IMG/VR virus record: IMGVR_UViG_3300037851_000330
Coordinates: 1-55,326 of that record
Length of the DNA: 55,326 nt
Source: a virus
Taxonomy: Duplodnaviria > Caudoviricetes
Reading direction: 5' to 3' (one strand)
Positions 11,079-54,749 of this stretch are shown piece by piece. Positions within the stretch are counted from its first letter, which is position 1; each line of letters opens with the position of its first letter. A program made the translations under genes and the position numbers. The notes below the pieces were generated by a model. The model was not told the origin of the DNA and searched no databases. It saw nothing but the letters and a program-made list of their open reading frames with translations.

Positions 11079-11366
11079 TTGCAATATAATAAACATATGA
11101 GCATGGACCGAAACGAAATCCTTCAAAGGATAATAGATGAAGATGGAAGCTGTAGTTGGGGCAACAAGAAAATTTGTGCAAAGTGTCCACTCAGTAAACT
11201 CAAACAAAGACCAGATGGTAATTACTACTCTTGTGTCGAAGCAGTTGGTGTTGACAACATGACAGAAGAAGAAGCAGACGCAAGATATAAAGAGATAGCC
11301 AAAAGGCTGTTAGTTGATGAGGCTATCGATGAGCTATTAGAAGGTAAATCTGATGAAACTCTCTGA
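11079..11366 (+). CDS. Cys-cluster small protein (likely start 11097 or 11103)
   Basis: G.C....C.KCP motif shared with the next gene. Confidence 0.6.
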   Translation: MQYNKHMSMDRNEILQRIIDEDGSCSWGNKKICAKCPLSKLKQRPDGNYYSCVEAVGVDNMTEEEADARYKEIAKRLLVDEAIDELLEGKSDETL

Positions 11367-11598
11367 TAGTAATAAGCTAATTCTAGAAGAAATAGTCGTA
11401 TTAGAAGGCAACTGTCTTAAAAGAGAGCGTTGCGAAAAATGTCCGTTTAAAATGTCATGCCTACCAGAATTCTTAAATACCGCTCCAACTAAAAATCAAC
11501 GTCTCGAAATGGCTTTAGATTTGATAACCCGGGATATAATACTAGAAGATAGTGAGGATTCGCATCCGTTATGGTACACCGAAAAATCAAAATCTTAA
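11353..11598 (+). CDS. Cys-cluster small protein
   Basis: EGNC....CEKCPF...C, paralog-like to 11079. Confidence 0.6.
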   Translation: MKLSDSNKLILEEIVVLEGNCLKRERCEKCPFKMSCLPEFLNTAPTKNQRLEMALDLITRDIILEDSEDSHPLWYTEKSKS

Positions 11599-11777
11599 AT
11601 CATGAAATAGATATAGTAGAAGATGTTGCTATCACGGTTGATGCCGCTATAGCGACCATGTCTATGATAGAGTATTATAAAGCTTATATTGCAGCAGGAG
11701 AAGGTTATGGGCAACGGGATGAGCGATTATTGGAAACAGAGAATCATGGCAGAGAAGGAATCTATAGTAATAGATGA
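11571..11777 (+). CDS. hypothetical protein
   Basis: ORF with GAGG RBS; overlaps neighbours. Confidence 0.4.
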   Translation: MVHRKIKILNHEIDIVEDVAITVDAAIATMSMIEYYKAYIAAGEGYGQRDERLLETENHGREGIYSNR

Positions 11778-11985
11778 TTGTGCTGTCGCCGTAGCCAAGA
11801 TGCTAGGCTGCTACGAATCCTTCTTGAAAAATAAGAGTGTGTTTTCAAGTACAGCAACATTGATGACCTTACAAGCCCTCTTAAGCACTGCAGAAGATAT
11901 GCACGGAAGACCAGATACAATAATGGGTTCTTCAGATTTCATTAAAACATTAACCAGAATATGCAGCAAAAATGAACAGCAGTAA
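11689..11985 (+). CDS. hypothetical protein
   Basis: ORF in coupled run; start uncertain. Confidence 0.5.
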   Translation: MQQEKVMGNGMSDYWKQRIMAEKESIVIDDCAVAVAKMLGCYESFLKNKSVFSSTATLMTLQALLSTAEDMHGRPDTIMGSSDFIKTLTRICSKNEQQ

Positions 11986-12202
11986 CATAAGAGACGCTTT
12001 AGACTGTACCAACGATGTTCATCTAGATAGCTCTTTCGCAGGTCTGTTTTATATCGTTAGTAGAATATACGCTGTACCAGAAGAAAAACTTCCTGCAAAA
12101 GCAAAGGTTGTTCTTGTCGATACAGCTTACGCTCTGTTTAGTATAGGTCTTCTTAAGTATGTCAAGAAACCAGAAGATGTAGACTTCTTTAAGCTACTCT
12201 AA
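11972..12202 (+). CDS. hypothetical protein
   Basis: ORF followed by hairpin GCCCCT-GAA-AGGGGC. Confidence 0.55.
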   Translation: MNSSNIRDALDCTNDVHLDSSFAGLFYIVSRIYAVPEEKLPAKAKVVLVDTAYALFSIGLLKYVKKPEDVDFFKLL

Positions 12203-12267
12203 ATACTCTACGTGTGCCCCTGAAAGGGGCCCGGGGCTTGCGAGTCGATTTCTAAGTGGGGTTGTAA

Positions 12268-12675
12268 GTGACGCTAGAACAATACTACGACAAAACAAAA
12301 TTCGAACAGCTGCAAGCTTGGCAAGCTATATGTGGTGCTGCAGACGCAGTTGACCGCATGGGTTTCATATCTAGAACAGAAATGGATTTAGTATATGGCT
12401 ACCTTCTAGATCTTGAACCATGGATAGAGTGGTATCCAGAATATGATTCCTACTATGATCAATACAATAAGTACGAAGATGGGTACTACTACTGGGACTG
12501 GCTCGACTCTGAGCACAATGATATCTGCGCCCATTACGAGAGAAGAGATAAAGCGCGCAACCGCCACTACATAAACGTAAAGTGCAAGCGCGACGCTGGC
12601 CTCACCTCATACAAGAACAAAAACTATAAGTTTAAAAACATCGGTACCCACAAGGGCAAAGGCCAGTACTACTAA
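12268..12675 (+). CDS. hypothetical Tyr/Asp-rich protein
   Basis: 135 aa ORF, GTG start after GGGG RBS. Confidence 0.55.
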   Translation: MTLEQYYDKTKFEQLQAWQAICGAADAVDRMGFISRTEMDLVYGYLLDLEPWIEWYPEYDSYYDQYNKYEDGYYYWDWLDSEHNDICAHYERRDKARNRHYINVKCKRDAGLTSYKNKNYKFKNIGTHKGKGQYY

Positions 12676-12986
12676 TCTACCGGGTCGCTCTCCACATTGA
12701 CTTCCTGAGTGCCGAACGGTCTCCACCGTATGGTCATTATGTATTCTTGCTCGCTGGCATCCAGATGGTGCATGTCCAAGAACTTGAAATAGGGCGTGCA
12801 GTATACGCTCTCAACCTCACCTATCTGCATCACCTGGCAAACCGCTATGAAAGCATCTTTTATTGTCGTGGCCTCTTGCGGGGTCGAAACTTGAATCTTA
12901 ACCGTGTGTGAGGAAGGGGACGGGTAGATGTTTATGTATGTGGGCCATAGGTTGCTGGTGAAGCTCTTACGGGTATAGATGCTCAT
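12672..12986 (-). CDS. hypothetical protein
   Basis: 104 aa, ATGA-coupled to 12983..13276. Confidence 0.5.
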   Translation of the reverse strand: MSIYTRKSFTSNLWPTYINIYPSPSSHTVKIQVSTPQEATTIKDAFIAVCQVMQIGEVESVYCTPYFKFLDMHHLDASEQEYIMTIRWRPFGTQEVNVESDPVD

Positions 12987-13276
12987 GGCGTTTTACCTCG
13001 GCCGCTCTGAATATGTATGTGGCCGGTGTTGCCTCCGCCAAGCGAGTTACCCGTTCGGATGGTAACGAAGCCGGTGTTTGATATGTGCTTGCGGATTGGG
13101 ATGTGGATGATGTTGAGATGTGTGATGTTGGGGCCATATTGGATGTCTTCAGGAATCTCAAGTTGGAAAGTATCGTTAGTGAAGCCCATGTTATATAAAG
13201 CGTATATAGCGTCAGCGATGTGTTGGGTTTCATCTTGTGTTAACGGTTTAGGAAACATGATTGTGTGATGTTGCAT
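12983..13276 (-). CDS. hypothetical protein
   Basis: 97 aa ORF leading away from the divergent junction. Confidence 0.45.
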   Translation of the reverse strand: MQHHTIMFPKPLTQDETQHIADAIYALYNMGFTNDTFQLEIPEDIQYGPNITHLNIIHIPIRKHISNTGFVTIRTGNSLGGGNTGHIHIQSGRGKTP

Positions 13277-13607
13277 TTTTATATTGTACTAAAAGGGGTT
13301 CCCTAGTAAGTACCGGTACAGTTGTGCCTAATAGGTGGGGAAGGGTACGGGCTAGTGATGGGGTGGGGGCCAAATATTTAAAAGTGCTCGTATACAGAGA
13401 ATTCGCGCCGGGGGTACCGCTACCGATTCGTGGGTTCCCTTTTTGCTCCGTGGCCAGCGGGTACCGATTCGATACCTTATCACTACGATACACGATGGGA
13501 GTTGTTATGGAAATGGTATTTTATATCATTATTGGACTATCTACGTTTACTGTTTGGTTTGTACACTGGTTTGACTGATTCGATTATTAAATATAACGGA
13601 GGACAAA

Positions 13608-14340: not shown

Positions 14341-14859
14341 ATGAACAAATTAACACAACGTGCCGCTGTCTACAACGCTACTAAACAAGTGTTTGAGGAC
14401 GCAGGTCACGACTTCGAAGACGGTATGAACGTTGATGCGACCATCAGCGACAGCATGCGCAAGTCTATCATCGACATCGTGTGCGCCGGTTTCGCTAAAG
14501 GTGAAGTCGAGTTGAAAGACACGCCGTCTAACCGCGAAAAGCTCTCTAACCCAACTAAGTTGCGTGGGTATGTAGGTGGTCTTGTGAGCAACTGGTTTCG
14601 CAAAGACGAACGTCTTAACGGTGACACAAAGTATCAGATCAAAAATCCGGGTTCACGTGCAGGATCGACTGATCCTCAGCTGAAAGCGTTGCGTGCCTTA
14701 GCACAACAGTTCAAAGGCACACCGAAAGAGGCGATCATCAAGTCTCAAATCGAAGCACGCACGACTGCAATCCAAGCTGAGAAAGCGAGCAAAGTGACAG
14801 TCGACATCAGCGCCTTACCGCCTGAGCTTGTTGAGCAACTTGGTCTGAACAAACAGTAA
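14341..14859 (+). CDS. conserved phage protein, paralog family A (copy 1)
   Basis: AAAGGAG RBS; clearly homologous to 24656..25165 and 46517..47026. Confidence 0.8.
   Translation: MNKLTQRAAVYNATKQVFEDAGHDFEDGMNVDATISDSMRKSIIDIVCAGFAKGEVELKDTPSNREKLSNPTKLRGYVGGLVSNWFRKDERLNGDTKYQIKNPGSRAGSTDPQLKALRALAQQFKGTPKEAIIKSQIEARTTAIQAEKASKVTVDISALPPELVEQLGLNKQ
14587..14666 (+). repeat. 80-nt exact direct repeat (second copy 24893..24972)
   Basis: AGCAACTGGTTTCGCAAAGAC...TCACGTGCAGGATC identical in both paralogs. Confidence 0.9.
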
Positions 14860-15881: not shown

Positions 15882-16157
15882 ATGATTAGTAAACAACTTA
15901 GTAATTTGTCTGTTTTGTCGAATTGCTTCTTGTATGAAGGAAAAGTATACGAGAGGTTATTTAAAGACGCTGATGATAGAGCGAGATTAAGGAAGAAGTA
16001 TCCTAAGTATGGCTTCAAGCATAAGTATCGATTTTTTATGAGCAGCGATGACTATGACTACGTAACAGATAAGAAGCTTGTTCGTAAGCTGAATAAGTTT
16101 ATGCAAGACGAGAGTAAGTGGCTCAAAACATATGTGAAATGGCTTCAACATGGGTAG
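15882..16157 (+). CDS. hypothetical protein
   Basis: AGGAGG RBS, promoter motif at 15844. Confidence 0.65.
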   Translation: MISKQLSNLSVLSNCFLYEGKVYERLFKDADDRARLRKKYPKYGFKHKYRFFMSSDDYDYVTDKKLVRKLNKFMQDESKWLKTYVKWLQHG

Positions 16158-16413
16158 TAGTAGCATCATGAATACATGCTTTTATTGTAAGGCGCAATGG
16201 GGTAAGTGTAAGTGCACAGAGGGTGATGAAGTGCTATTTGTAAGTTGGAGCGGAACCAATATCACCAATCCTGGGGTCTCTGAGTGTGGTCGCTTCTATG
16301 TTAACCCTTTACATCACTACGGAACAAAATTCACTGAATGGTTGTCTTATTGTGTGCACTCTGGTAATAAGCATAAATTTGCTCAACCTTTTATTGAAAG
16401 GAGATTCTTATGA
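16150..16413 (+). CDS. hypothetical Cys-rich protein
   Basis: Coupled ORF. Confidence 0.55.
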   Translation: MGSSSIMNTCFYCKAQWGKCKCTEGDEVLFVSWSGTNITNPGVSECGRFYVNPLHHYGTKFTEWLSYCVHSGNKHKFAQPFIERRFL

Positions 16414-16958
16414 TATCGAAGGATTGGACTTTAAATTTTGAGGTTAATGGGTTAAAGGTGAAAGCTCATATTCCACCATATGTCTGGATGTATAGGCAAG
16501 GTGCTATTGAAGAGGTCTGCGTGGTGGATGAGAGAGGCTGTGAGTTGCGAGTTAATACTAAACTAAACATGAACACTAACGATCCGGCTGAACTTGAGGC
16601 ATTGGTTTCTGCTCATACCTATCCTACAAGTGTATGTAAGACATGTAATAGTCCTATGCTTGCACATAGCAGCCACTATCGTACTCCTAATGAGTGCGAG
16701 ACTTGCTGTAAAGAACGCATAAGTGCAGAGTTTAATAAACTAAATGAAAGAGAGCGCTTCAAAGATAAAGTAAGAGATACAGCACATAAAGCTCAAGGTT
16801 ATAAGTTTAAGGCAATAATGAATGTGCATCCTGTTAGTGGTGATGATTTTCAACTCGTTCAATACTCATTTGAGAAACCATCACATAAAGACATAAAAGC
16901 TGTACTTATTGACAACAAATCTACTGTGTTCGATGACTATCGAATAGATGTTTTATAG
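16410..16958 (+). CDS. hypothetical protein with zinc-finger-like CxxC pairs
   Basis: AAGGAG RBS; CKTC...CETCC. Confidence 0.65.
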   Translation: MISKDWTLNFEVNGLKVKAHIPPYVWMYRQGAIEEVCVVDERGCELRVNTKLNMNTNDPAELEALVSAHTYPTSVCKTCNSPMLAHSSHYRTPNECETCCKERISAEFNKLNERERFKDKVRDTAHKAQGYKFKAIMNVHPVSGDDFQLVQYSFEKPSHKDIKAVLIDNKSTVFDDYRIDVL

Positions 16959-17903: not shown

Positions 17904-18194
17904 GTGGCAAAAATAGATGACCATGAACAATATAATGACACATTAAATGCAGCAATAGATAAACTAAGAGCTGAAGAGAATTTTGAACCATACGCATTAG
18001 AGAATTGCTGCGAAGATGGTGGATGGAGCTACGATACTTGTATCAGAGTGTTGAATTGCTTAAGTATAGAAGAAACAATGAATGTGTACGACTTCGTATT
18101 TAACGATGAAATGCATTTCACTGATGAATGGCGAAAAGCATTAAAAGACACGATTGATCACTATCATGTTGAAAAAGCTATCTTTGGGGAGTAA
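17904..18194 (+). CDS. hypothetical protein with C-terminal tag
   Basis: GTG start after AGGAG; ends VEKAIFGE. Confidence 0.65.
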   Translation: MAKIDDHEQYNDTLNAAIDKLRAEENFEPYALENCCEDGGWSYDTCIRVLNCLSIEETMNVYDFVFNDEMHFTDEWRKALKDTIDHYHVEKAIFGE

Positions 18195-18196
18195 TT

Positions 18197-18412
18197 ATGA
18201 AGCATAAAATAGTTATAGAGTTTGAAACAGATGACATTTTAAACGCAGATCAACAAAACACTATCGAATTGATGGCTAATGATGCATTCGTACAGCTTGA
18301 AACATTAAACGAAGTTGAATATGATAGCAGAGTTTCATTTAAGAACGCTAAATATACATACTCTAATGATCTTGAAGAAAAGGTCGATAAGGTCATATTG
18401 GAGGAAGAATGA
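18197..18412 (+). CDS. hypothetical protein with C-terminal tag
   Basis: Ends VDKVILEEE. Confidence 0.65.
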   Translation: MKHKIVIEFETDDILNADQQNTIELMANDAFVQLETLNEVEYDSRVSFKNAKYTYSNDLEEKVDKVILEEE

Positions 18413-20297: not shown

Positions 20298-21137
20298 ATG
20301 GGTAGATCAGTAAACTATATCGGCTTCGCACGAATTGGCAACCAATTTGGTCCTGCTCAAGGTAATGGTGAATATTGCAAAACATTGCCTGCAGGTCACT
20401 ATAAACTTGAGTACGATCATTACAACGACATATTGTTGTTAAACAGATTCGAGCCAAAACTCGATGACATTCTTAACATAGGAAGTAAAGAATTTAACGA
20501 AGTGTTAAATAATGCTAAGAAGTTTCTTTCTCCTGAAACAGAAGATATTTTTAAGCAAAATGGCTATTTAATGAAGCGATCATATTTCCTATATGGTCCT
20601 CCGGGAACTGGAAAATCTGTTTTGTGTACTAAGGTTTGCAATATCGCAGTTGAGAAAAAGAATGCTATTTCTGTCTATCCAGATGGTCATCAAGCGTTAG
20701 AGCGATTTGTTGAGGTAATCAACGATACAGACCCAAATCGCTTTCTTGCTATTACTCTCGAAGAGTTTGATTCTTCTTTAAGACAAGAAGGTGATCATAA
20801 CTGGACAACTCTTCTTGATGGTCAGTTTCAAGCAGGAAACAGAATATTAGTTGCTTCAACTAATAATATCGGAGCTATTCCATCTCGCTTATTAAGACCC
20901 GGTCGCTTCTCTCGCCTATATGAGATTCCTGCCCTAACCGAAGAGACAAAGCGAGAGTATTTGGTACAAAAAAGTGTACCTACTGAAACAATCGAGCGAA
21001 TAATGAAATACTCTGAATCTCTCACTATCGATGAGATGAAAGAGATCGTTCAGAACGTTGTAATCTTAGGTGAAGACCTTGATTCAACAGTAAAAGCTAT
21101 TACTGCTGCTAAAAAGTTGGGATATGACGCTGACTAA
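20298..21137 (+). CDS. AAA+ ATPase
   Basis: Walker A GPPGTGKS, Walker B-like ITLEEFD, STN sensor, LLRPGRF second region of homology. Confidence 0.9.
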   Translation: MGRSVNYIGFARIGNQFGPAQGNGEYCKTLPAGHYKLEYDHYNDILLLNRFEPKLDDILNIGSKEFNEVLNNAKKFLSPETEDIFKQNGYLMKRSYFLYGPPGTGKSVLCTKVCNIAVEKKNAISVYPDGHQALERFVEVINDTDPNRFLAITLEEFDSSLRQEGDHNWTTLLDGQFQAGNRILVASTNNIGAIPSRLLRPGRFSRLYEIPALTEETKREYLVQKSVPTETIERIMKYSESLTIDEMKEIVQNVVILGEDLDSTVKAITAAKKLGYDAD

Positions 21138-21469: not shown

Positions 21470-21778
21470 ATGGCTTTTAATCGTAAGCATACACCAATTT
21501 ATCCAAGAATTGATGAAGGTTACGTAGCGCCTGAAGGTTTCTTCATGGTGATAGAAGATTATTGTACGTATCCTTTGATGGTTGAATACTTAAACGATGG
21601 TGGCAGTAGACCAAGGTATTACCATAAGATAGATGAAAAATGGGAAGTAAGAACTGAGGTGAGTAGAAAAGATTCCAACCCTCTTGTTAGAGAACCCCTT
21701 ATCACAGATGAATTTCTTAATAAGGTTTATCAGTATTTAGCTGATCAATTGGCAGAAAAGGCAATCTTCGATGAGTAG
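21470..21778 (+). CDS. hypothetical protein with C-terminal tag
   Basis: Ends LAEKAIFDE. Confidence 0.65.
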   Translation: MAFNRKHTPIYPRIDEGYVAPEGFFMVIEDYCTYPLMVEYLNDGGSRPRYYHKIDEKWEVRTEVSRKDSNPLVREPLITDEFLNKVYQYLADQLAEKAIFDE

Positions 21779-22207: not shown

Positions 22208-22465
22208 ATGAAATTCAATAACTTTAAGTCTGCACAGCATTCGTCAAATTATAAGAACTTGCAATTGAAGAAGCTTAATAAGAAGCAACCTGTAAAGGTT
22301 TATTCTGAAGAAGAGAAGAAAGCTTTAGCTGCTCAAATGGGTGTTGGTACAGTGCCATCTCGAGTACCAGAGAAATTAGTAAAAGAAGCAAAACTTGAAG
22401 AAAACGTTGACTTATCAGTACTTGATCCTGAGTTGTTAAAACAATTAGGCGTTCAAGTTAAGTAA
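22208..22465 (+). CDS. hypothetical protein with VDxSxLxPEL C-terminal module
   Basis: AGGAGG RBS, promoter at 22170; ends VDLSVLDPELLKQLGV. Confidence 0.7.
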   Translation: MKFNNFKSAQHSSNYKNLQLKKLNKKQPVKVYSEEEKKALAAQMGVGTVPSRVPEKLVKEAKLEENVDLSVLDPELLKQLGVQVK

Positions 22466-22745: not shown

Positions 22746-23112
22746 AGGTATGCGCTCTAAATCAAGGCATGATGGCAAATTTAGATTTGCTATAAAGAAA
22801 ATGCATATTTACTATGCAACTAAAGTTAATCCTCGTTGGACTTATAAGGAACTATTGATCAGCATTTGCGAGCGATTAACTAATAAGCAGCTGTCTTGGA
22901 TAATTTCAAGTAAAGATAAATACTATGAACCTATAGTTGAACATGCTAAAACAGAACTATTGGAGCGTGAACTTCTTTTAAAACCAATGATACAAGAGAA
23001 TATGGTTGAGGTCTATGACCACTACGTTCTCACAAAGAAAAAAGAAGCATCTTTATTTAGAGAATTAACAAGCGGAGATAAGGTTTTCTATGAGTCAGAA
23101 GAATACACTTGA
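22735..23112 (+). CDS. hypothetical protein
   Basis: Internal ELLERELLL resembles the 51030-51969 family. Confidence 0.6.
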   Translation: MANKGMRSKSRHDGKFRFAIKKMHIYYATKVNPRWTYKELLISICERLTNKQLSWIISSKDKYYEPIVEHAKTELLERELLLKPMIQENMVEVYDHYVLTKKKEASLFRELTSGDKVFYESEEYT

Positions 23113-23401
23113 AAGACCTAAAAGAGACCCTGACTATGTTTCAGAGCGCTGTGTAGAGTATTGGTGGGCGCCTGAATGGGTTCGAGACTTAAAAGGAACT
23201 ATATGTAAGATTAAGGTCGTTAAGAACGGCAACGATGCTGACCTACATATGGTATCTAAGTCTGGTAATCACTCTTACATCAAAGGAAGAATACAGAAGG
23301 CTTTTAAACAGTGGCATACAGATCGTCAGATAGACTACATTATATTAGGTGTAGACGAAGAAGAATTATGGGTCGCTGACTGGGAAAAGAAAGATGAATA
23401 G
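23090..23401 (+). CDS. hypothetical protein with near-terminal tag
   Basis: QIDYIILG near the C-terminus. Confidence 0.6.
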   Translation: MSQKNTLERPKRDPDYVSERCVEYWWAPEWVRDLKGTICKIKVVKNGNDADLHMVSKSGNHSYIKGRIQKAFKQWHTDRQIDYIILGVDEEELWVADWEKKDE

Positions 23402-23654
23402 GTTTCTACCAGATGAATTAAGGCAACGCATCATTGATATAAACTGTAGTGATGATAACCTACTTGGTAGAGATTTATCTAAAGCAATATGTGAAAGATG
23501 GTCTGATGAAAAGCTAATTAAAGCTTTTGAAGAAAAGATGCATGTTTATGGTATTGCTGGTCTTACAGAACATTTAACTTATAAAACAATATATGTTCCT
23601 TTAATGGAAGATATAGCAGAATTCATGATCTTACAAGAAAAGAGAGATGTATGA
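23394..23654 (+). CDS. hypothetical protein with C-terminal tag
   Basis: Ends IAEFMILQEKRDV. Confidence 0.6.
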   Translation: MNRFLPDELRQRIIDINCSDDNLLGRDLSKAICERWSDEKLIKAFEEKMHVYGIAGLTEHLTYKTIYVPLMEDIAEFMILQEKRDV

Positions 23655-41876: not shown

Positions 41877-42201
41877 GGTTACGTATCTTGCTTGCCTGAG
41901 TCATAACAGACTTAGGTATGTCCCCTCTTTCAACGATGTGATCTAACATTTTTCCGCGAATTCTAGTGCCTGCATAAGTACTAAAGTTTGCGCCAACCTC
42001 AGGTTTATAACGATGCAAAGCTTCCATAAGACCTTGAAAGCCAGCCATGTGTAAATCACCTTCATCTATCCCTTCAGGGATCTTACCTTCATTCTTTAAT
42101 TTGGTGGCATGTAGGTTAATAGTAGGTGCATGTTCAATAAGAAACTGATTTATTTTTTGCTGATTTTCTGGCAGATCCAGTGGACTTTTCTTATTGTTCA
42201 T
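41857..42201 (-). CDS. FliA/WhiG-like sigma factor, region 2 only (114 aa)
   Basis: DL...G..GL.EA..RY.P..GA.F.TYA..RIRG.MLD....D..P.SV matches sigma-28 region 2; stops before regions 3-4. Confidence 0.8.
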   Translation of the reverse strand: MNNKKSPLDLPENQQKINQFLIEHAPTINLHATKLKNEGKIPEGIDEGDLHMAGFQGLMEALHRYKPEVGANFSTYAGTRIRGKMLDHIVERGDIPKSVMTQASKIRNLKPGQS

Positions 42202-42733
42202 AATTTGCTCCTTTCTTTATATTATCACACTTCCATAGTGGTTGTAAATTTGTATAATGGCAAGCTTTTTGTAACTGCAAGGAATCAGTTAAATCGAAGT
42301 GATTCAAGGGAACAATATGATCTATATGCCATTGGCCATGATTTTGCCATGTCATACCCGGTTCAAATAAGGCCTCTATATGTTTTTTAAGAAATTCCAC
42401 AGAGCAACCAAGACTTTTTATTGCAGACCCACTTTTGTAATTTCTTTTAATGGCACAGTTGAGTCTATTTCTAATGATGTGTCTAAGCTTAAAAACTGGA
42501 TCGTTATTGTATCTAAACTTTTTTCTAGCAATCTGTTTATGTTTATGCTTCAAGTAGTTTTTGCTATTATATTCTTTTCTCTTATGGGGATTCTTATTGT
42601 CCCATTCAAATCTTTTGCTGTACATATAATCTCTATGCTCTCGCGCCCACAATTTGCTGTTACATGGCCTACATCTGCCTGTTTTATTTTTACTACCTAA
42701 AGGAGAGTGACATAATGAACATTGCTTATCCAT
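42191..42733 (-). CDS. HNH homing endonuclease-like protein
   Basis: N-terminal CxxC..CxxC; LGCS...L..H.E..F..GM.W.N.G.WHIDHI.P...HYTNLQPLW..DN..K. Confidence 0.8.
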   Translation of the reverse strand: MDKQCSLCHSPLGSKNKTGRCRPCNSKLWAREHRDYMYSKRFEWDNKNPHKRKEYNSKNYLKHKHKQIARKKFRYNNDPVFKLRHIIRNRLNCAIKRNYKSGSAIKSLGCSVEFLKKHIEALFEPGMTWQNHGQWHIDHIVPLNHFDLTDSLQLQKACHYTNLQPLWKCDNIKKGANYEQ

Positions 42734-43299: not shown

Positions 43300-44160
43300 A
43301 TGGAGAAATGCGTGGCTAAGAAGCTTAAATCGTTCTTTGAAAAATGTAAGAAGGTAGTAACGAGTACCTTCAATTTCGCGTTAAATCTTTTATTGATTTG
43401 CGCAGTAGCAGGTACTTTAGGGGTTGTTAGTTTAAACGCTCCAAAAATTCACAACAAGTGGCTTAGGTCAAATGTTGGTGAAAGAGTATATCGCATAATG
43501 ATGCTGGATGAACAAGGTTATCTTCTTGGCGGAGGTACGGGTTTTCAGGTTATTGGGCGAAGCGGTGTCAGCTATATCATGACAAACGCACACGTGTGCG
43601 AACCTTTTCAAAAAGAGGGTTACATCAACGTAGAGATGAAGAACGGTAGAGTTGTTCCTAGAAAGATATTAGAGATATCAAAAGTAACTGATCTATGTCT
43701 AGCTGAAGGTCTTCCTGGTGTTCAAGGTCTAGCTGTTACAAATCAAGCAAGCACTGGCGATCATCTTTATATAATTGGTCATCCACTATTACAGCCACTA
43801 AGTATTACTCAAGGCGAGATAATCGCTAAATCTCTTGTAGAGTTTCCTTACGCACAAATAATCCCTGACGATGTTCCAGAAGAAGAAAGAGAAGACTGGA
43901 TGATGACTGAAGGGCAATGTAAAGCTCAACCTAAATTTAAAGTAGCATCTATGACTTTCTTTGGCCAAACAGTTAAAGTTTGTATGTTGAGCTTAATGGC
44001 ATACGAATCTACGATCACATCTTTTCCAGGAAACAGCGGTAGTCCAGTTGTTGACTCATGGGGCAACGTTGTTGGTGTTCTTTATGCTGGTAACGGTATG
44101 ACTACTTGGGGACTTATCCTTACTAACGAAGACGTTCAAAATTTCTTATCTGCGTACTAA
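43300..44160 (+). CDS. membrane-anchored trypsin-like serine protease
   Basis: TM helix; GTGF, TNAHV, DL, PGNSGSP motifs. Confidence 0.88.
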   Translation: MEKCVAKKLKSFFEKCKKVVTSTFNFALNLLLICAVAGTLGVVSLNAPKIHNKWLRSNVGERVYRIMMLDEQGYLLGGGTGFQVIGRSGVSYIMTNAHVCEPFQKEGYINVEMKNGRVVPRKILEISKVTDLCLAEGLPGVQGLAVTNQASTGDHLYIIGHPLLQPLSITQGEIIAKSLVEFPYAQIIPDDVPEEEREDWMMTEGQCKAQPKFKVASMTFFGQTVKVCMLSLMAYESTITSFPGNSGSPVVDSWGNVVGVLYAGNGMTTWGLILTNEDVQNFLSAY

Positions 44161-46516: not shown

Positions 46517-47026
46517 ATGAGTACAAGTCAAAAAGACGCAGTTGTAGCCGCAGTAGCTAAAATACTAGGCAAATCGTTCGTTCCCGGCGCAACCAATGTA
46601 AAAGATTCGTTAACTGAAGATCAGTTAACAGAGTTACGAGAAAGTATATTTAAAGGTATCAAGTCAGGCGACATCACCTTTAATAAAGAGATGACCGATG
46701 ATAAAGCGTTAAGACGCTACGTTAACGGCATGATCGACAACCATTTACGCAAAGCAAAAGAGTTAAATGGTGGTCAGAAGTATTCCACTAAATCCACAGG
46801 CGGTTCACGCGATTCACAGATTGCTGTGCTTAAGAAGCTAGCAAAAAACTATGAAGCAGGTACCCCAGAGCACAGTAAAGTTGTTTCTGCGATCAACATG
46901 AGAGAATCTACGTTGGCAGCAGAAAGACAACGAGCAGCAAGCGAGAAGAAAAAGGCATCTGCGCTTAAAAACGTAGATACAAGTATTCTTCCTCCTGAGC
47001 TGTCACAGATATTGAACGACGAATAG
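46517..47026 (+). CDS. conserved phage protein, paralog family A (copy 3, divergent)
   Basis: SQKDAV..AV, YV.G...N..RK...LNG..KY, D.Q...L, VDTSILPPEL shared with 14341 and 24656. Confidence 0.75.
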   Translation: MSTSQKDAVVAAVAKILGKSFVPGATNVKDSLTEDQLTELRESIFKGIKSGDITFNKEMTDDKALRRYVNGMIDNHLRKAKELNGGQKYSTKSTGGSRDSQIAVLKKLAKNYEAGTPEHSKVVSAINMRESTLAAERQRAASEKKKASALKNVDTSILPPELSQILNDE

Positions 47027-47115: not shown

Positions 47116-47544
47116 TTGATGAAAAAGATCTTGTTGGTAAATAAAGAAACCGCATTAGGCCATAATGATGAGCTGCTTGGGTTTGCTGAAGAAAATGTAG
47201 TTATATTTGAAAAATATAACGTGCAAAACCCTTGCCAACTGATTATATCTAAAGAAGATAATAAAAGTGATTTTAATATGTGTGTAACCTTATGCCTTGA
47301 GCAAGACGGTATATATGTCATCTTTGATGAAAAAGAATTGCTCAACTTAGATCTAAATGTAATCAATTTTGGTTTTTCGGGTAAAGTAATAGATTGCATC
47401 ACTGAAAACAGCAAAAGATACATATCAAGGTATTCAATAGATTTAATTGCTATATCACTATGCTCTTACGAGCAATCTATAGCTAAAGCTTTACTAGACC
47501 AAGAAATAGAAAGTATAATTTTCGATGAAAATTCTAAAAACTAG
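47116..47544 (+). CDS. hypothetical protein with C-terminal tag
   Basis: Ends IESIIFDENSKN. Confidence 0.6.
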   Translation: MMKKILLVNKETALGHNDELLGFAEENVVIFEKYNVQNPCQLIISKEDNKSDFNMCVTLCLEQDGIYVIFDEKELLNLDLNVINFGFSGKVIDCITENSKRYISRYSIDLIAISLCSYEQSIAKALLDQEIESIIFDENSKN

Positions 47545-48304: not shown

Positions 48305-48670
48305 GTGCTTTATATAGGTCAAACTAAAAAAATGGGTAGAGGTGTTTTTACTTCTACTAAGATTAAAATGGGCAGTCTCATAGAGACAGCTCACGTTATT
48401 CCGTTTATAGAAACCGACCTATTTGTGAAGTGTAAAGGTTTGCAAAACTATGTATACGAATGGCTTCCAGGTTTCTGCGCTATAGCTACAGGATTTGGTT
48501 CACTTTATAACCATTCTCGTAGGCTAAACGTTTATTGGTCCGTTGATTTTGAGCGAAATGTAATTAGATATTGGGCGCGTAGAGATATAAAACCAAATGA
48601 ACAACTTTTTATTGACTATGGATATGAACCGGTAAAACCTAAAAAGAGGAGAAAAAATGGCAAAAAGTAA
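48305..48670 (+). CDS. SET-domain methyltransferase
   Basis: GRGVF, YNHS..N, A.RDI...EQL.IDYG. Confidence 0.85.
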   Translation: MLYIGQTKKMGRGVFTSTKIKMGSLIETAHVIPFIETDLFVKCKGLQNYVYEWLPGFCAIATGFGSLYNHSRRLNVYWSVDFERNVIRYWARRDIKPNEQLFIDYGYEPVKPKKRRKNGKK

Positions 48671-49015: not shown

Positions 49016-49444
49016 ATGAAACGAGCAATCTACCCCGGTAGCTTTAACCCATGGCATGAAGGCCACGAAGATATTTTAAGTAAAGCACTTAAAGTATTTG
49101 ATCAGGTCATTATAGCTGTTGGTGTTAATCCTGACAAGGGGCAGATTGCCGATGAAGCTATTAAAAGCATACCGAGCTACTTTGAAGATGATCCTCGAGT
49201 AGCAGTTATCAAGTTCGATGGTCTACTTGTAGACTTTGTAGCCAAGATGAACGGTAACGCAGTCATTCGCGGTCTTAGAAATGGGAATGACTTTGAATTT
49301 GAAAAAACTCAGCAGTATTGGAACGAAGACTTAAAGTTGGGGGTACCAATTGTCTATTTTATCTCGGATCGCAAGTTGGTTCATATCTCAAGCTCTGGAA
49401 TCAGAGCAGTTGCAAGGGCTAAAGCAAATAAAAGAGATACATAA
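49016..49444 (+). CDS. coaD: phosphopantetheine adenylyltransferase
   Basis: AIYPGSFNP.H.GH, N..K, GLLVDF, IRGLR...DFE.E, ISSS. Confidence 0.88.
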   Translation: MKRAIYPGSFNPWHEGHEDILSKALKVFDQVIIAVGVNPDKGQIADEAIKSIPSYFEDDPRVAVIKFDGLLVDFVAKMNGNAVIRGLRNGNDFEFEKTQQYWNEDLKLGVPIVYFISDRKLVHISSSGIRAVARAKANKRDT

Positions 49445-49685
49445 ACTTTCTCTCGGACCAAATGATCTTTTAATTGTTAATCTTGGTAAGAATGTAACTC
49501 AAGATTTAATACAAAGAGCCAGAGAAAACCTACGAGGCCACTTAAAAACTAATCATGTAATAGTTGTCAGTGATTTTGATAATCTTTCTTTCATTAAGCT
49601 ACACATAGAAGAACACCTTGCAGACGAAATTATTCTTAAAGCCGCTATAGACAAAAAAGACAACCCTGACAGAATCGATATGTAG
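49350..49685 (+). CDS. hypothetical protein with near-terminal tag (start uncertain)
   Basis: LADEIILK. Confidence 0.5.
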   Translation: MSILSRIASWFISQALESEQLQGLKQIKEIHKLSLGPNDLLIVNLGKNVTQDLIQRARENLRGHLKTNHVIVVSDFDNLSFIKLHIEEHLADEIILKAAIDKKDNPDRIDM

Positions 49686-49700
49686 ACACACGGGGGTGTT

Positions 49701-49901
49701 ATGGGAAGTTTATCAGCTATTATATTTGCTTTTTGTGCATCAGTTGTTCCAAATAAAAAAGAAGAAATGATGCTTAATTGCTTTGATCAGATGGTTAATT
49801 GCACTATGAAAGTAGGGCAAAAGACTACTGATAAGGTAGTTGAACAGTGCAAAGCGCAAACAAAGAAGAAAGATTTAACTAAACATTGGGACGATCAATG
49901 A
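49701..49901 (+). CDS. small Cys-containing protein
   Basis: Promoter at 49669, GGGGG RBS. Confidence 0.55.
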   Translation: MGSLSAIIFAFCASVVPNKKEEMMLNCFDQMVNCTMKVGQKTTDKVVEQCKAQTKKKDLTKHWDDQ

Positions 49902-49943
49902 TTGCTTTTATAATTGTTCTTTTATGTTTTTTGGGGTTATTGT

Positions 49944-50168
49944 ATGTCAGTAGGAAATTCACCTCTTGAACTTGCATGGGTTTGGGAAGAATTAAATAAA
50001 AAATACGAAGTTGCTCACTCTGGTCCTTCACATAGAGAAGTTATATGCGTCAAAACGCAACGAGCTGTTTTTAGGGGTTCACTAGAAGACACACTTATGT
50101 GGTACAGAAAAAAGGGTCAAGAGCTTGTTGATGAGCTCGAAGATATTCTATTAAAAGAGGAAACATGA
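49944..50168 (+). CDS. hypothetical protein with C-terminal tag
   Basis: Ends LEDILLKEET. Confidence 0.55.
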   Translation: MSVGNSPLELAWVWEELNKKYEVAHSGPSHREVICVKTQRAVFRGSLEDTLMWYRKKGQELVDELEDILLKEET

Positions 50169-50560
50169 GTAGACCTGTAAAACAAGTCATCGTTATGAGA
50201 AAAGACCTTAACATGCGTAAGGGTAAGATGGTTGCCCAAGGCTCTCATGCTTCTATGGCAGCTATACTTAACGAGATGTCTTATGGTGAAGATGAGTACG
50301 GCATGGCAAAAAGAGACATGACTCCTGCTCTTAAACAATGGTTGAGTGGTTCATTTACTAAAATTTGTTTATCTGTGGACTCTGAACAAGAGCTTTTAGA
50401 TATAGTTCAAAAAGCTGAAAGTGCAAGACTTTACTGCGCTCTAATCACTGATGCAGGTAAGACAGAGTTCAACGGTGTTCCAACCATTACATGCTGTGCT
50501 ATTGGTCCAGCGTATGAAGATGAGATAGATGTTATAACAGGACACTTGAAGCTTTTATGA
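50165..50560 (+). CDS. pth2: peptidyl-tRNA hydrolase type 2
   Basis: KQVIV.R.DL.M.KGK..AQ..HA, KI.L, DAG.TE, T..AIGP, ITG.LKLL. Confidence 0.92.
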   Translation: MSRPVKQVIVMRKDLNMRKGKMVAQGSHASMAAILNEMSYGEDEYGMAKRDMTPALKQWLSGSFTKICLSVDSEQELLDIVQKAESARLYCALITDAGKTEFNGVPTITCCAIGPAYEDEIDVITGHLKLL

Positions 50561-50796
50561 GTTTACGTTTGACTTCTGTAGAGTATGCAGCTGAGTGGGA
50601 TAGAGCAGTTAAAGCTGCTGGATTATTAAGACGTGAGCACGACTCATTCACTGAATATCCTATTATTGCTAAACATGCCAGCCTTAGACTGCTAAAATAT
50701 GTAGTTGAATACGATGGCGTTATTTGGACTGAAGGGTGGTTTGTAGCTTGTCAAGAAGAGCTTGCAGAAAGGATACTTCTAGGTGTCATCTATTAA
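50557..50796 (+). CDS. hypothetical protein with C-terminal tag
   Basis: Ends LAERILLGVIY. Confidence 0.65.
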   Translation: MSLRLTSVEYAAEWDRAVKAAGLLRREHDSFTEYPIIAKHASLRLLKYVVEYDGVIWTEGWFVACQEELAERILLGVIY

Positions 50797-51040
50797 AGAA
50801 GCTATACCATTCGTTCCGGGTCCAAAAGAAGACTGCAGGTATTGTGCAGGCACTGGTACTGCTGGAGCGATGGAATGCTGTAACTGGCGTGAAGAAAAAG
50901 GTGAATGCTGCAATAATTACATTGAGGTCAACTTCTCTTGTAACTGCAGCGATCTAAGAAGAATTGAATATGACTTCATGATAAAAGATACAGAGAAAGA
51001 GTTAGAGGAAATCATTCTTGGAAACGAAGATGACAGATAA
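50783..51040 (+). CDS. zinc-finger-like protein with C-terminal tag
   Basis: CRYCAGTG..CNC; ends LEEIILGNEDDR. Confidence 0.65.
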   Translation: MSSIKEAIPFVPGPKEDCRYCAGTGTAGAMECCNWREEKGECCNNYIEVNFSCNCSDLRRIEYDFMIKDTEKELEEIILGNEDDR

Positions 51041-51284
51041 ACAGCTTGAAGAGTATAAGCAAGATATTCAAATGGAATTAGACTGCTTGCTATCTAAACA
51101 CAATAAGGAATCTCGTGATATTTATGTGTGGCAAAATATAGTTCCTAAAATGGACGATAAATTGATAGATGAAATATTAAAGTTGCACAAAATTGATCCT
51201 AGTTATTGGCGGCATCTGTTTATTTCTTTAGTAGAAAAAGAAGCCGAAGATAGATCTGAGAGGATTGTGCTTGGCAAAATATGA
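51030..51284 (+). CDS. hypothetical protein with C-terminal tag
   Basis: Ends SERIVLGKI; paralog-like to 51724. Confidence 0.65.
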   Translation: MTDKQLEEYKQDIQMELDCLLSKHNKESRDIYVWQNIVPKMDDKLIDEILKLHKIDPSYWRHLFISLVEKEAEDRSERIVLGKI

Positions 51285-51537
51285 ATACTATGTAGACGTA
51301 ATGAACGCGTTAATAAGCTGCCTATCATGTCAAAATCCAGAGCAGTGCTTTTATCAAGAGGGTTCATGGCAACACAGCAAAAAACATATTCCCCTAGAAA
51401 TCATAGAGCTTATTGCTGAAGACCCATGTTTGCCATACAGTTCTAAAGATTCCAGTTTTTGGGCGCATTTTGATGAACATATGGTCGAGACTTGTAAAAA
51501 CGAGATAGCAGAAAGAATTATACTAGGTATTAAGTAA
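51265..51537 (+). CDS. hypothetical protein with C-terminal tag
   Basis: Ends IAERIILGIK. Confidence 0.65.
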   Translation: MCLAKYEYYVDVMNALISCLSCQNPEQCFYQEGSWQHSKKHIPLEIIELIAEDPCLPYSSKDSSFWAHFDEHMVETCKNEIAERIILGIK

Positions 51538-51734
51538 TGACACCGAATGACATATTTGATGAACTAGATAAAATTGGTTTGCGTTGTTTTGCAGACAAAG
51601 AGATGATATCTCAAGTTTCAAATGATTTACTGGAAGAAATTATGGACTTAGAGAGTTGTTTTAGTCCATGGTTCGTTGAACTCTGTAAACAGGAGTTTGA
51701 GCGAAGGCTAGAAAGGACTATCCTTGGAGATTAG
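51537..51734 (+). CDS. hypothetical protein with C-terminal tag
   Basis: Ends LERTILGD. Confidence 0.65.
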   Translation: MTPNDIFDELDKIGLRCFADKEMISQVSNDLLEEIMDLESCFSPWFVELCKQEFERRLERTILGD

Positions 51735-51969
51735 TCAAGAATCATGGCTCGCCGTATATGAGGCAGCAAAAGGCAAAACACACGGTTTCTTTCCTGATCG
51801 CTATAAAGATGTGGTTATGCATATGGACGATGCACACCTAGAGTGGTCACTTGAAGACTATAATATAAACCCAGATAAATGGCATATCTATTTCATTAGG
51901 GCAGTAGAAAAAGAACTAGAGAACAGAGCTGAAAAAATAATACTAAATATAACAAAAAATTCACTTTAA
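51724..51969 (+). CDS. hypothetical protein with C-terminal tag
   Basis: Ends AEKIILNITKNSL. Confidence 0.65.
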   Translation: MEISQESWLAVYEAAKGKTHGFFPDRYKDVVMHMDDAHLEWSLEDYNINPDKWHIYFIRAVEKELENRAEKIILNITKNSL

Positions 51970-52149: not shown

Positions 52150-52226
52150 TGTGGGATAGCAATCAGGGTGACTGCACTTGACTGTTAATCAAGACTAGGC
52201 TGGTTCGATCCCAGCTCCCACAGCCA
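52150..52226 (+). tRNA. tRNA-Asn(GTT)
   Basis: Acceptor TGTGGGA/TCCCACA, loop CTGTTAA, GGTTCGATCC, G73-CCA. Confidence 0.9.
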
Positions 52227-52227
52227 T

Positions 52228-52303
52228 GCAACTTTTGTAGATAGGGTTATTACACCGGTTTGAAGCACCGAGGAACTCAGTTCGACTCTGAGAGGTTGCA
52301 CCA
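52228..52303 (+). tRNA. tRNA-Phe(GAA)
   Basis: Acceptor GCAACTT/AGGTTGC, loop TTGAAGC, GTTCGACTC, A73-CCA. Confidence 0.85.
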
Positions 52304-52340
52304 TTTTTAAATTGTTAATAAGGAGAATTAAGTTAATCTA

Positions 52341-52699
52341 ATAAGTTGGATAGCGAAGCTACTGCTGAGTAAATCAGAGGAACTTCGGGACTCCACAAGC
52401 AGCATAGCAGGTAATTACTGTCCACCGTAAGGTGAGCGACGGCTACAGAGACGAGTCATCAACATGGTACCGGTTCATATCTAGTATGAAAGTTTGCGAA
52501 AGCTTACACTTTGAACGGTTCCAAACTGGGCGTTATGTTGATGAGTGAAACGAGCGACAGCGTATGCGGAGCAACCTCAAATAGGAGCACAATGACTAGC
52601 TTGAGTCGTGTTCGGGTTGAGGGCTTGAGAATAAACGCGAGTTTATTCCTAGACGGATAGTAGCATAAACAGAATCCCGGGTAACGCTATCCAACTTAT
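52341..52699 (+). ncRNA. rnpB: RNase P RNA (bacterial type A-like)
   Basis: 15-bp terminal helix ATAAGTTGGATAGCG/CGCTATCCAACTTAT; 5' GAGGAACTTCGGGACTCCA and 3' ACAGAATCCCGGGTAA form P4 with bulged U; AGTGAAACG, GAGCAA and CCTAGA conserved-region-like motifs. Confidence 0.88.
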
Positions 52700-53395: not shown

Positions 53396-53396
53396 T

Positions 53397-53473
53397 ACTC
53401 CTGTAGCCCAACGGCAGAGGCAGTCGGCTTAAAATCGACAAAGTGATGGGTTCGAATCCCTCCAGGAGTACCA
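53397..53473 (+). tRNA. tRNA-Leu(TAA) with short variable loop
   Basis: Acceptor ACTCCTG/CAGGAGT, GTCGG-CTTAAAA-TCGAC, GGTTCGAATCC, CCA. Confidence 0.85.
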
Positions 53474-53491
53474 ACTTTTTATAGGAGAGCT

Positions 53492-53779
53492 ATGGTTAAA
53501 CTTTTATATACATTTGTAACTCCCGATGGCGTTACATTGGATTTTTACGATAATGGTTGCTATGAATCGTATCGCGTAAAAGATCATCTAATTACTAAGC
53601 GTTATTTAGTAGGAAATGACGCCAAGTGGAAAATAAAAGATGGTGAGATGTGGTTTAAGATTTATGATGGAGAGTTTAAAACTGTAGCAAAAGATTCAGT
53701 TCATTACCATAATTACGCACAAGTTGCGGATGCTATAGCTACTGTAATGTTAGAGAAAGCGATTTGGGGAGATGAATAA
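53492..53779 (+). CDS. hypothetical protein with C-terminal tag
   Basis: AGGAG RBS; ends LEKAIWGDE. Confidence 0.7.
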   Translation: MVKLLYTFVTPDGVTLDFYDNGCYESYRVKDHLITKRYLVGNDAKWKIKDGEMWFKIYDGEFKTVAKDSVHYHNYAQVADAIATVMLEKAIWGDE

Positions 53780-54119
53780 AAAGGTTTTAGTTAAACATGA
53801 TAGGATAGCTTTTGATGGAAGAGTTATTAGAAAGATTTTTTATGACGACAACACCTATGAAGTGCTTTTCCCAGATCTTGGCCATGATGGTTTGCCAGTT
53901 ACAGTGTTTGCTGAGTGGAGATTTTATGGCGAGCATAATTGGGAGTGGAAACACGTAGGTGAAGAATGGGCCTCTGTGATAATGGAGAAGAAGGGTTTTG
54001 ATTTTTTAACGGTTATAAAAAGACAAAAAAAAGAGAGAGAAGAATTAGCCGACAATGAGATAATTGCAGATCTACTTAAAACAGCCATACTAGAAAAGGC
54101 GATTTGGGAAAATGATTGA
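53772..54119 (+). CDS. hypothetical protein with C-terminal tag
   Basis: Ends LEKAIWEND; paralog-like to 53492. Confidence 0.7.
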   Translation: MNKKVLVKHDRIAFDGRVIRKIFYDDNTYEVLFPDLGHDGLPVTVFAEWRFYGEHNWEWKHVGEEWASVIMEKKGFDFLTVIKRQKKEREELADNEIIADLLKTAILEKAIWEND

Positions 54120-54417
54120 GTTTTACGGTTGGACATTTGACTTTAAAAAAATGAGAGCCATTGACCACAATGGGCAAAGATTTATGTTAATGAAACTCAA
54201 TAATGAATTTTATGTACAACATGAGTCAGCAAAAGAAAAAGCAGCCCTTGGCATGTATAAGCCAAGTTGGAATTGGCCCAGTTTCAGAATAAAAGAAGAC
54301 CCTGAAACCGGATTGAATTTAGATGGCTGGAATAAACAAAAGAATAAAGAACTCACTCAAGTATACATGACTTGGTGCGTTGAAGAAGCAATATTTGGTC
54401 CCGCCGAAGGACGGTAG
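54112..54417 (+). CDS. hypothetical protein with C-terminal tag
   Basis: VEEAIFG; last codons lie inside tRNA-Arg(TCT). Confidence 0.65.
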   Translation: MIEFYGWTFDFKKMRAIDHNGQRFMLMKLNNEFYVQHESAKEKAALGMYKPSWNWPSFRIKEDPETGLNLDGWNKQKNKELTQVYMTWCVEEAIFGPAEGR

Positions 54418-54466
54418 CGGAACTTCTAATTCTGCGGATGGGGTTCGAATCCCTACGGGACTACCA
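54397..54466 (+). tRNA. tRNA-Arg(TCT), 70 nt, reduced D-arm
   Basis: Acceptor GGTCCCG/CGGGACT, GCGGAA-CTTCTAA-TTCTGC, GGTTCGAATCC, A73-CCA. Confidence 0.8.
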
Positions 54467-54479
54467 AGTTAGGAATTTT

Positions 54480-54749
54480 ATGTGGAAATTGATACAAAAT
54501 GCAGAACAGTGGGAAAATCATAAAAGAGATATCAGTAATGCTTATCAAACTGCTGTGCCGCACAGCCACGACATAATCAGCGATTATCCTTTTATGGTTA
54601 AATCTACGTATGAAGATGGCAGTAGTCGTTACAGGCCATACTTCAGTCATGACTTTTTGTTCTTAGATGACGTCTTGCCGCTTATAAAAGTTGAGCATGA
54701 TAGACTTCTAAACGAAAAGATTGATTCCACTATTTTAATTGGAGAGTAA
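54480..54749 (+). CDS. hypothetical protein with C-terminal tag
   Basis: AGGA RBS just after the tRNA CCA; ends IDSTILIGE. Confidence 0.65.
   Translation: MWKLIQNAEQWENHKRDISNAYQTAVPHSHDIISDYPFMVKSTYEDGSSRYRPYFSHDFLFLDDVLPLIKVEHDRLLNEKIDSTILIGE

Follow-up and report, generated by a model that had tools for sequence, protein, structure and literature searches.

A shared C-terminal helix-end motif on 22 small non-structural proteins of an uncultivated freshwater myovirus

What could lead some twenty small proteins of one phage, dissimilar over most of their length, to end in the same dozen residues? The question is raised by IMG/VR virus record IMGVR_UViG_3300037851_000330, which we analysed in its entirety (55,326 bp, hereafter the window; 33% of a genome by the CheckV completeness estimate, so that about 165 kb is expected in full). 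Its source is a large contractile-tailed phage (myovirus), uncultivated and from freshwater, whose sheath protein (4672–6867, minus strand) has 32% identity to that of Myxococcus phage Mx1 and 59% identity to that of IMG/VR contig L001, the sole close contig found. Our own simple gene call, from which the coordinates below are taken, gives 112 genes: tail genes occupy the minus strand across positions 1–11,019, and from position 11,079 onward there are about 90 genes on the plus strand (91 in the call). An original prediction, made from the letters of the window, had claimed a common C-terminal peptide on many small proteins and quoted about 22 endings, and all 22 are present at the open reading frames (ORFs) to which it assigned them.

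A shared ending on 22 small proteins

Twenty-two small proteins of the non-structural block (45–146 aa, mostly acidic) end in one common helix-end motif, which we refined to L-x-[ED]-x-x-[ALIV]-[ED]-[KRE]-[IA]-I-[LFW]-[G/acidic] and here call the tag; the proteins that bear it are its carriers (Table 1). Counting columns in an ungapped alignment of the 22 tails, position +2 is L, F or W in all 22, position +1 is I in 19 and position 0 is I, A, T or V in 19. On the upstream side, position −1 is K, R or E in 15 tails, −2 is E or D in 20, −3 is A, L, I or V in 20 and −6 is E or D in 13, with Leu often found at −8 or −7, and position +3 is G in 11 tails and otherwise mostly E, D or K. Columns −3, 0, −6 and +3 are conserved even though they were not used in choosing the carriers. 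The bare five-residue core originally proposed thus has to be widened to a tag of about 12 residues, comprising the last turns of a helix and a Gly cap. Nor is the tag always terminal, since between none and 16 residues, mostly acidic, come after it. The carriers themselves are acidic, with a median isoelectric point (pI) of 5.15 versus 6.85 for the other 42 small plus-strand proteins (p = 3e-4).

In the AlphaFold2 models made for two carriers, the C-terminal helix ends with the tag. The model for the 51271 family is all-alpha with a predicted local distance difference test score (pLDDT) of 70; its C-terminal helix (residues 69–85) is the most confident part, with Gly86 immediately after, and a Foldseek search of this model against the PDB returned no match at E ≤ 0.001. 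Carrier 53492 is modelled at low confidence (pLDDT 54) as a beta-meander followed by a helix at residues 75–90. A longer module with an upstream D-[PS]-x-x-W, suggested by MAFFT, was discarded: its ungapped columns are weak and, on our reading of the listed tails, the W enrichment upstream rests mostly on the tandem array at 50557–51969.

Among the 91 plus-strand genes, a pattern of the form [ED]xxI[ILFW] ending within the last 14 residues matches at 15 of 910 tail positions versus 12 of 10,305 internal positions (rate ratio 14, Fisher p = 2.7e-10). Among the remaining 21 genes, most of them structural, no match falls in 210 tail positions, in keeping with the earlier statement that recognisable enzymes and tail proteins do not end this way; the recognisable enzymes all lack the motif and so do nearly all structural proteins. 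When applied to 19 loci of other phages (378 genes) the same pattern gave 15 tail matches against 19.3 expected. Because this pattern had been chosen post hoc, after sight of the data, we also ran tests in which no motif is defined beforehand. Counting the protein pairs in which a 7-mer scoring at least 20 in BLOSUM62 is common to the last 16 residues (n = 86 proteins), we observed 79 pairs, versus 30.2 ± 6.0 for internal windows (maximum 48 in 200 draws) and 37.8 ± 6.7 for tails shuffled in place (maximum 58), and 63 pairs were left once those inside BLAST-detectable families had been dropped. On three control sets from other phages this pair test found no excess in two and an excess in the third, a set of loci retrieved with the same AAA profile and probably sharing orthologues.

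A position-specific scoring matrix (PSSM) of 12 columns, built leave-one-out with detectable paralogues also held out, places 19 of the 22 tails in the top 0.1% (at most 12 of 12,964 non-carrier positions reach their scores), the exceptions being 23988, where the register is shifted, 32358 and 51030. Tails of 5 bits or more occur in 2 of 183 ORFs that are not genes versus 25 of the 112 called genes, and a six-frame profile search of the window brought back 18 of the 22 tails used for training, with no further match in any frame. The pattern-based, pair-counting and held-out tests agree that a common C-terminal motif is present on many small proteins. The weaker cases listed in the original prediction fared unevenly: 11079 stands (7.5 bits, conserved in L001), 11353 (4.2 bits) and 41553 (3.7 bits) are weak, and 21124 finds no support. 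Of the two internal copies it reported, the one in 22735 scores 8.2 bits and that in 16967 scores 4.9.

Three observations on related endings may be recorded here. The adjacent plus-strand proteins 11079–11366 and 11353–11598 are paralogues with a C-x-K-C-P cysteine motif, and both are conserved in L001 (5032–5295 and 4781–5032, minus strand). One structural gene comes near to the motif, the tail-module gene 1842–2363 (minus strand), whose product ends ..EAAKEIFGDDFGEDIKEDFE and contains ..AAKEIFGDD.. (8.9 bits); its L001 orthologue (16077–16586) ends ..GKKIFGESFGDDIEEDFE, so that the near-match is conserved. A second shared ending, ..VD[IL]S.L.PEL..QLG[LV].., is found on the plus-strand paralogues 14341–14859, 24656–25165 and 46517–47026 (169–172 aa, 30–64% identity) and on an 85-aa protein (22208–22465, plus strand) that matches them in its C-terminal part only.

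Table 1. Proteins with the shared tag, all on the plus strand. Scores of the 22 carriers are held-out PSSM bits (family-out for the array at 50557–51969); the number in parentheses is the count of non-carrier positions (of 12,964) reaching that score.
Coordinates	Class	Length (aa)	Tag (nt)	Score	Remarks
17904–18194	carrier	96	18153–18188	5.1 (8)	tag IDHYHVEKAIFG
18197–18412	carrier	71	18368–18403	11.8 (0)
21470–21778	carrier	102	21737–21772	19.4 (0)	best-scoring tag
23090–23401	carrier	103	23315–23350	9.2 (1)	16 residues after tag
23394–23654	carrier	86	23601–23636	10.5 (0)
23988–24125	weak carrier	45	near 24078–24113	0.4 in fixed register, 7.6 shifted	barely more than the C-terminal helix; register shifted by one
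32358–32798	weak carrier	146	32736–32771	−0.7 (64)	tail-profile match E 6.5e-5, with a profile trained on 32358 among others
35755–35967	carrier	70	35929–35964	5.1 (6)	sole basic carrier (pI 9.5); protein terminates with the tag, next 243 nt without a gene
37242–37490	carrier	82	37446–37481	17.2 (0)
47119–47544	carrier	141	47491–47526	17.9 (0)
49410–49685	carrier	91	49605–49640	9.8 (0)	start uncertain (ORF opens at 49350); 14 residues after tag
49944–50168	carrier	74	50121–50156	8.1 (1)
50557–50796	carrier, tandem array of six			6.4
50783–51040	carrier, tandem array of six			19.0	Cys-rich N-terminal part
51030–51284	carrier, tandem array of six			1.7
51271–51537	carrier, tandem array of six			12.3
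51537–51734	carrier, tandem array of six			5.9
51724–51969	carrier, tandem array of six			13.2
53492–53779	carrier, row of four			7.6	ends A-I-[FW]
53772–54119	carrier, row of four			5.0	ends A-I-[FW]
54112–54417	carrier, row of four			5.6	ends A-I-[FW]
54480–54749	carrier, row of four			10.2
11079–11366	looser tag			7.5	LLVDEAIDELLE; Cys-motif paralogue of 11353–11598
11353–11598	looser tag			4.2	ends ..RDIILEDSED..

Could the likeness come from the DNA and not from the protein? The claim that synonymous codon variation points to protein-level selection is borne out, as the conserved columns follow genome codon usage: Ile at +1 is encoded by ATC in 6 tags, ATA in 6 and ATT in 7, and four codons are used for Leu at +2. 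The caveat first attached to the motif, that its final G and E may derive from the Shine-Dalgarno site of an overlapping next gene, holds for that last G/E only and leaves the core unexplained, since the +3 codon could be the Shine-Dalgarno site of the next called start in only 6 of the 22 tags. At the +3 Gly, GGA is used more often than elsewhere (5 of 11 versus 20% genome-wide); this, with those six possible sites, is what speaks for an artefact, whether from the ribosome-binding site of the next gene, from composition or from helix ends in general. Against such an artefact, the core lies upstream of the Shine-Dalgarno zone, the 40 nt after the tag contain no start in six carriers, and the signal is absent from shuffled tails, from ORFs that are not genes and from the 19 loci of other phages; the tag is present both with and without a coupled downstream gene. 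We regard an artefact as largely refuted and leave it hardly any probability.

Kinship and distribution of the carriers

Carriers occur both as singletons and in runs, from 17.9 to 54.7 kb, the tandem runs being 17904–18197, 23090–23988, 49410–51969 and 53492–54749 (named by the starts of their members, or by their span). When the tails are removed we detect no significant similarity among the N-terminal parts: among 25 sequences the best phmmer E value is 0.006, for the plus-strand proteins 23394–23654 and 37242–37490, in a stretch reading ..LP..[IL]RQ.[IV]ID... BLAST recognises a family only in the 51030–51724 part of the array, four or five of whose six members are detectable paralogues, and it matches 53492 with 53772 in the last 18 aa only. 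Similarity outside the tag is seen within the 51030–51724 array and weakly in four other pairs, a comparison of low power because it relies on single sequences without outside homologues. No PHROGs family was found for 10 carriers, and carrier 21470 matched only itself, with no other homologue among 5.8 billion proteins and with nothing better than low-score neighbours in the ESM Atlas.

These data bear on a reading in which the carriers are one family, or a few families, of fast-diverging paralogues and the C-terminal helix is a fixed folding or self-association core that has no external partner. The tandem runs fit this reading, as do the BLAST paralogues at 51030–51724 and the pair 53492 and 53772, in which divergence with a fixed tail is directly visible; the weak N-terminal pairings that remain (E 0.006–0.02), the confinement of the tag to one lineage and the C-terminal helix being the most confident part of the AlphaFold2 model are likewise in its favour. 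Other features fit it poorly. Helix-capping rules give a purely structural helix no cause to keep an acid in its last turn almost without exception, as happens at −2, and the two N-terminal parts that were modelled differ in class (beta versus alpha). In addition, protein lengths are spread from 45 to 146 aa, and the best-scoring tags are on singletons scattered across 30 kb (21470, 37242 and 47119). On balance we consider descent of this kind, as a full account of the tag, possible but somewhat doubtful; among the alternatives to the docking reading set out below it is the strongest.

A profile of the 22 tails run against 1.84 billion representative proteins gave 10 matches at E ≤ 0.001, of which eight were the window's own and two were repeat artefacts, in a search of low power whose threshold was passed by only 8 of the 22 own tails. 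The longer candidates searched against 5.8 billion proteins gave five matches, all the window's own, and neither the Mx1 genome nor two other viral records contained a tail-profile match at E ≤ 1. Against PDB sequences the sole match was a segment of an archaeal prolyl-tRNA synthetase, ..EEKVEATILGETE.. (E 0.0077), which we took as chance. The L001 orthologues of 11079 and 11353 keep the hydrophobic pair beside acidic residues, as looser versions of the tag, and a further L001 ORF, of uncertain coding status, ends ..EELLESIFGRPY... L001 itself ends about 5 kb into the early side, and its remaining 46 kb have no match to any protein encoded in the window.

We also sought relatives of the early region through its other genes. 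Scans of IMG/VR with the AAA and ligase proteins found nothing of the kind, scans of IMG/VR and metagenomes with an AAA alignment found relatives at 24–42% identity only, and a scan of genome contigs returned generic cellular AAA proteins only. The ribonucleotide reductase (RNR) as query gave 18 loci sharing RNR and ThyX alone with the window, and with the phrog_2087 protein a single locus was found, at 32% identity. Four freshwater metagenome runs, each of a different study and one of them possibly the source of the window itself, have contigs with near-identical pieces of it, and no RNA run was among those listed; when compared, the pieces were identical and short, with no usable variation within carriers. 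A literature search, below full-text level and without supplementary files, found no account of such a tag set. The motif, its conservation in position and at the protein level and its restriction to this phage lineage are established.

Candidate partners and functions

Taken as a whole, these properties are compatible with the tag being a functional docking epitope for one common partner, a reading to which we assign a probability a little short of even. In this case the tag, as the last two or three turns of the C-terminal helix, would present a small hydrophobic knob formed by positions −3, 0, +1 and +2 (typically A/L, I/A, I and L/F/W), with an acid at −2, often another at −6, and a Gly or acidic residue closing the helix. 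On the simplest reading all carriers would plug into one hydrophobic pocket, bearing a basic residue or rim, on a single partner that may be a host protein or be encoded in the two thirds of the phage genome beyond the window. The constant tail would then serve as tether and the variable N-terminal part would supply the individual activity, so that the carriers would form a library of adaptors or effectors. Tandem duplication probably multiplied them, with the N-terminal parts afterwards diverging fast and the tail staying fixed.

The main argument for an epitope is the acid at −2. Helix-dipole and capping preferences make an acid in the last turn of a helix not stabilising, and exposed charges normally drift; from the conservation of this one we infer recognition. 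The docking reading draws further on the likeness of the tails without any predefined motif, also after removal of detectable paralogue pairs; on the different N-terminal parts, which have no significant similarity and are modelled as beta-meander in one case and all-alpha in the other; on the independence of the tag from downstream gene coupling and its genome-like codons; and on the acidity of the carriers and the conservation of columns that played no part in their selection.

Several results weigh against docking. A cruder motif-free test, by residue class, was not significant, its best pattern being found in 11 tails where the null has a mean of 7.9 and a maximum of 11. Two clusters are visibly tandem paralogues, so part of the tail likeness is due to shared descent, and the beta-type model, of 53492, is the one of low confidence. 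In the searches above, which had low power, the tag was not found outside its own contig, despite the expectation that a conserved host hub as partner might have similar tags docking to it from other phages. Of the functions originally proposed, binding to one hub remains the best reading, with both the binding itself and the identity of a partner being things we infer. Docking and paralogy both fit the data and are not mutually exclusive.

The most concrete lead to a partner, from sequence comparison, is a reader of the beta flap-tip helix of RNA polymerase, for example sigma region 4. Residues 898–908 of Escherichia coli RpoB read EEKLLRAIFGE and agree with the tag consensus in 10 of 11 columns. 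On the carriers' PSSM (columns −6 to +4) the flap tip scores 16.7 bits, which is reached by none of 197,742 background positions, in a window chosen after sight of the data; in two other PSSM windows its scores are 9.5 bits (9 of 195,928 positions are as high) and 12.3 bits (2 of 200,463), and in each of the three windows at most one site of RpoB ranks above it. The agreeing columns include E898, L901, I905, F906 and G907, which are named contact residues. Contacts of T4 AsiA at the flap tip include G907 and E898 (PMC6755090), and flap-tip contact residues are likewise given for sigma-E region 4 (PMC6648896), T4 gp33 (PMC7892883) and phiEco32 gp36 (PMC12276001); the residues that match the tag insert into sigma region 4, AsiA, gp33 and gp36. 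The flap-tip helix is itself a hub that many host and phage factors read.

There are also differences. The flap tip is an internal helix of a 1342-aa subunit whereas the tag is C-terminal, and position 902 is Leu in the flap tip and Glu or Asp in the tag: of L901, L902, I905 and F906 the tag keeps those at −3, +1 and +2, and has E or D in 20 of 22 tails at −2, the equivalent of L902. Without the five carriers that end A-I-[FW] the flap tip scores 5.2 bits, reached by 66 of 195,928 positions. The resemblance is a purely statistical one, and the reverse search is weak, with two window sites at BLOSUM ≥ 22, both of them carrier tails, versus 11 of 75,725 control positions; about fifteen known motifs had been compared before this match was noticed. 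The best BLOSUM match to the flap tip among the 562,038 open-frame positions of all loci compared is the L001 ORF with EELLESIFGRPY (score 30).

The window encodes a 114-aa protein (41857–42201, minus strand) in which sigma-70 is represented by region 2 alone (Pfam score 35.9 bits against a cut-off of 24); the phage thus does re-programme host RNA polymerase, a further point in favour of docking. This protein is reminiscent of T4 gp55, and a 144-aa gene of unassigned family with an L001 homologue in the structural module (42191–42625, minus strand) directly precedes it on its strand. We think it unlikely, though worth stating, that the roughly twenty small proteins with flap-tip-like C-termini would dock in the groove of sigma region 4 (or on NusA or a factor of the gp33/AsiA type), tethering effectors to the transcription machinery or to sigma factors; the acid at the L902 position might then give a charge contact and let the tag out-compete the real flap.

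Other functions had been suggested for the tag, among them recognition by the phage's own AAA+ ATPase or ClpP. The window does hold an AAA ATPase (20298–21137), whose gene is embedded among carriers, together with a ClpP-like protease, a trypsin-like peptidase, a subtilase and a weak metallopeptidase match, and the tag might accordingly be a degradation or remodelling signal, or an adaptor tether, for one of these. Yet the AAA protein has 22 relatives (48–75% identity, with the N-terminal region strongly conserved and the 75% relative encoded on a 60-kb contig) and similar tails are absent from public proteins, the tail profile matching its own contig only, which argues against a conserved AAA reader; nor are loci around distant AAA relatives enriched in the motif. 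C-terminal degrons of the ssrA type and ClpX-tether peptides are defined by a non-polar extreme C-terminus or by a basic tether motif. The tags end acidic and are not always terminal, so they show neither the ssrA-like degron ending nor the ClpX-tether character. A complex prediction for the AAA ATPase with the tail alignment gave a score of 0.00, which we do not count as a verdict and give no weight either way. The suggestion thus gained no support, and we consider such a reader improbable.

A role in capsid loading or ejection had been proposed by analogy with the capsid-targeting sequence of T4, which is N-terminal, is cleaved by the prohead protease and is carried by late packaged proteins. 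The likeness is that of a peptide shared by diverse proteins, and the conserved near-match in the tail-module gene 1842–2363 could be added to it. Unlike the T4 sequence, however, the tag is C-terminal, is uncleaved as far as visible and is found in a non-structural block: the carriers lie among nucleotide-metabolism genes on the strand opposite the tail genes, none of the 21 other genes has the pattern, and there are no capsid genes in the window. Capsid loading is accordingly a very remote prospect.

A closer precedent for unrelated phage proteins binding one hub through a shared tail is found in T4, where gp43, gp55 and gp33 have interchangeable hydrophobic-acidic C-termini that all bind the gp45 clamp (PMC2988020). 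The tag is different from that epitope. T4 gp43 ends ..SLDFLFG and gp55 ends ..SLDFLYEAND, to which the carriers' PSSM gives −3.0 and −12.5 bits respectively; the carriers lack the S-L-D-F-L-[FY] consensus at the extreme C-terminus, and the spacing from acid to hydrophobic residues differs. T4 has three such proteins of known function and the window has about 20 small unknowns, the T4 epitope sits on a flexible linker and the tag is the end of a helix, and no clamp gene is among the genes of the window (about a third of the genome by the CheckV estimate given above). A variable body with a constant C-terminal docking element read by one machine is also seen in SspB, whose tail docks on ClpX, in poxviral ankyrin proteins with a C-terminal F-box-like domain, and in ESCRT-III, whose MIM binds the MIT domain of Vps4; these have no sequence resemblance to the tag, and there the readers are known.

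Genomic setting and implications

The carriers share the window with recognisable genes for NAMPT, an NMNAT-Nudix protein, an ATP-dependent ligase, the AAA ATPase, the ClpP-like protease, a class II RNR (minus strand), trypsin-like and subtilase peptidases, ThyX, RNase H, PTH2, a phosphoesterase, a kinase-like protein, a SET-domain protein (48305–48670), a cytidylyltransferase, a PD-(D/E)XK nuclease and the sigma-70 region 2 protein. Four peptidase-like genes, all on the plus strand, lie in the non-structural block: a subtilase (33156–33968), the weak match to a phage metallopeptidase (35258–35758), the ClpP-like gene, whose product has a Lys-rich tail (40868–41521), and the trypsin-like gene (43312–44160). 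Between 12000 and 16000 the G+C content is 0.45–0.46 versus 0.34–0.39 around it, with few convincing ORFs on either strand; in the L001 counterpart the genes are likewise in mixed orientation. Inside the phage tRNA cluster, with tRNA-Phe and tRNA-Arg on either side, the stretch 52346–52698 (plus strand) matches the bacterial class A RNase P RNA along its full length (RF00010; 141.8 bits against a gathering score of 100), and contigs of two of the metagenome runs skip 52226–52376, with indel differences nearby.

No pool of unknown function in phage genomes is larger than that of the small early proteins. If about one fifth of the genes of this block do share a constant docking helix, many of them would act via one partner, whose identification would give every carrier a mode of action at once and provide a portable tag for tethering cargo to it. 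If the partner reads the flap tip, this would be a new route for phage takeover of transcription. If the carriers are instead a paralogue family, they would be a further case of motif-anchored gene expansion in large phages.

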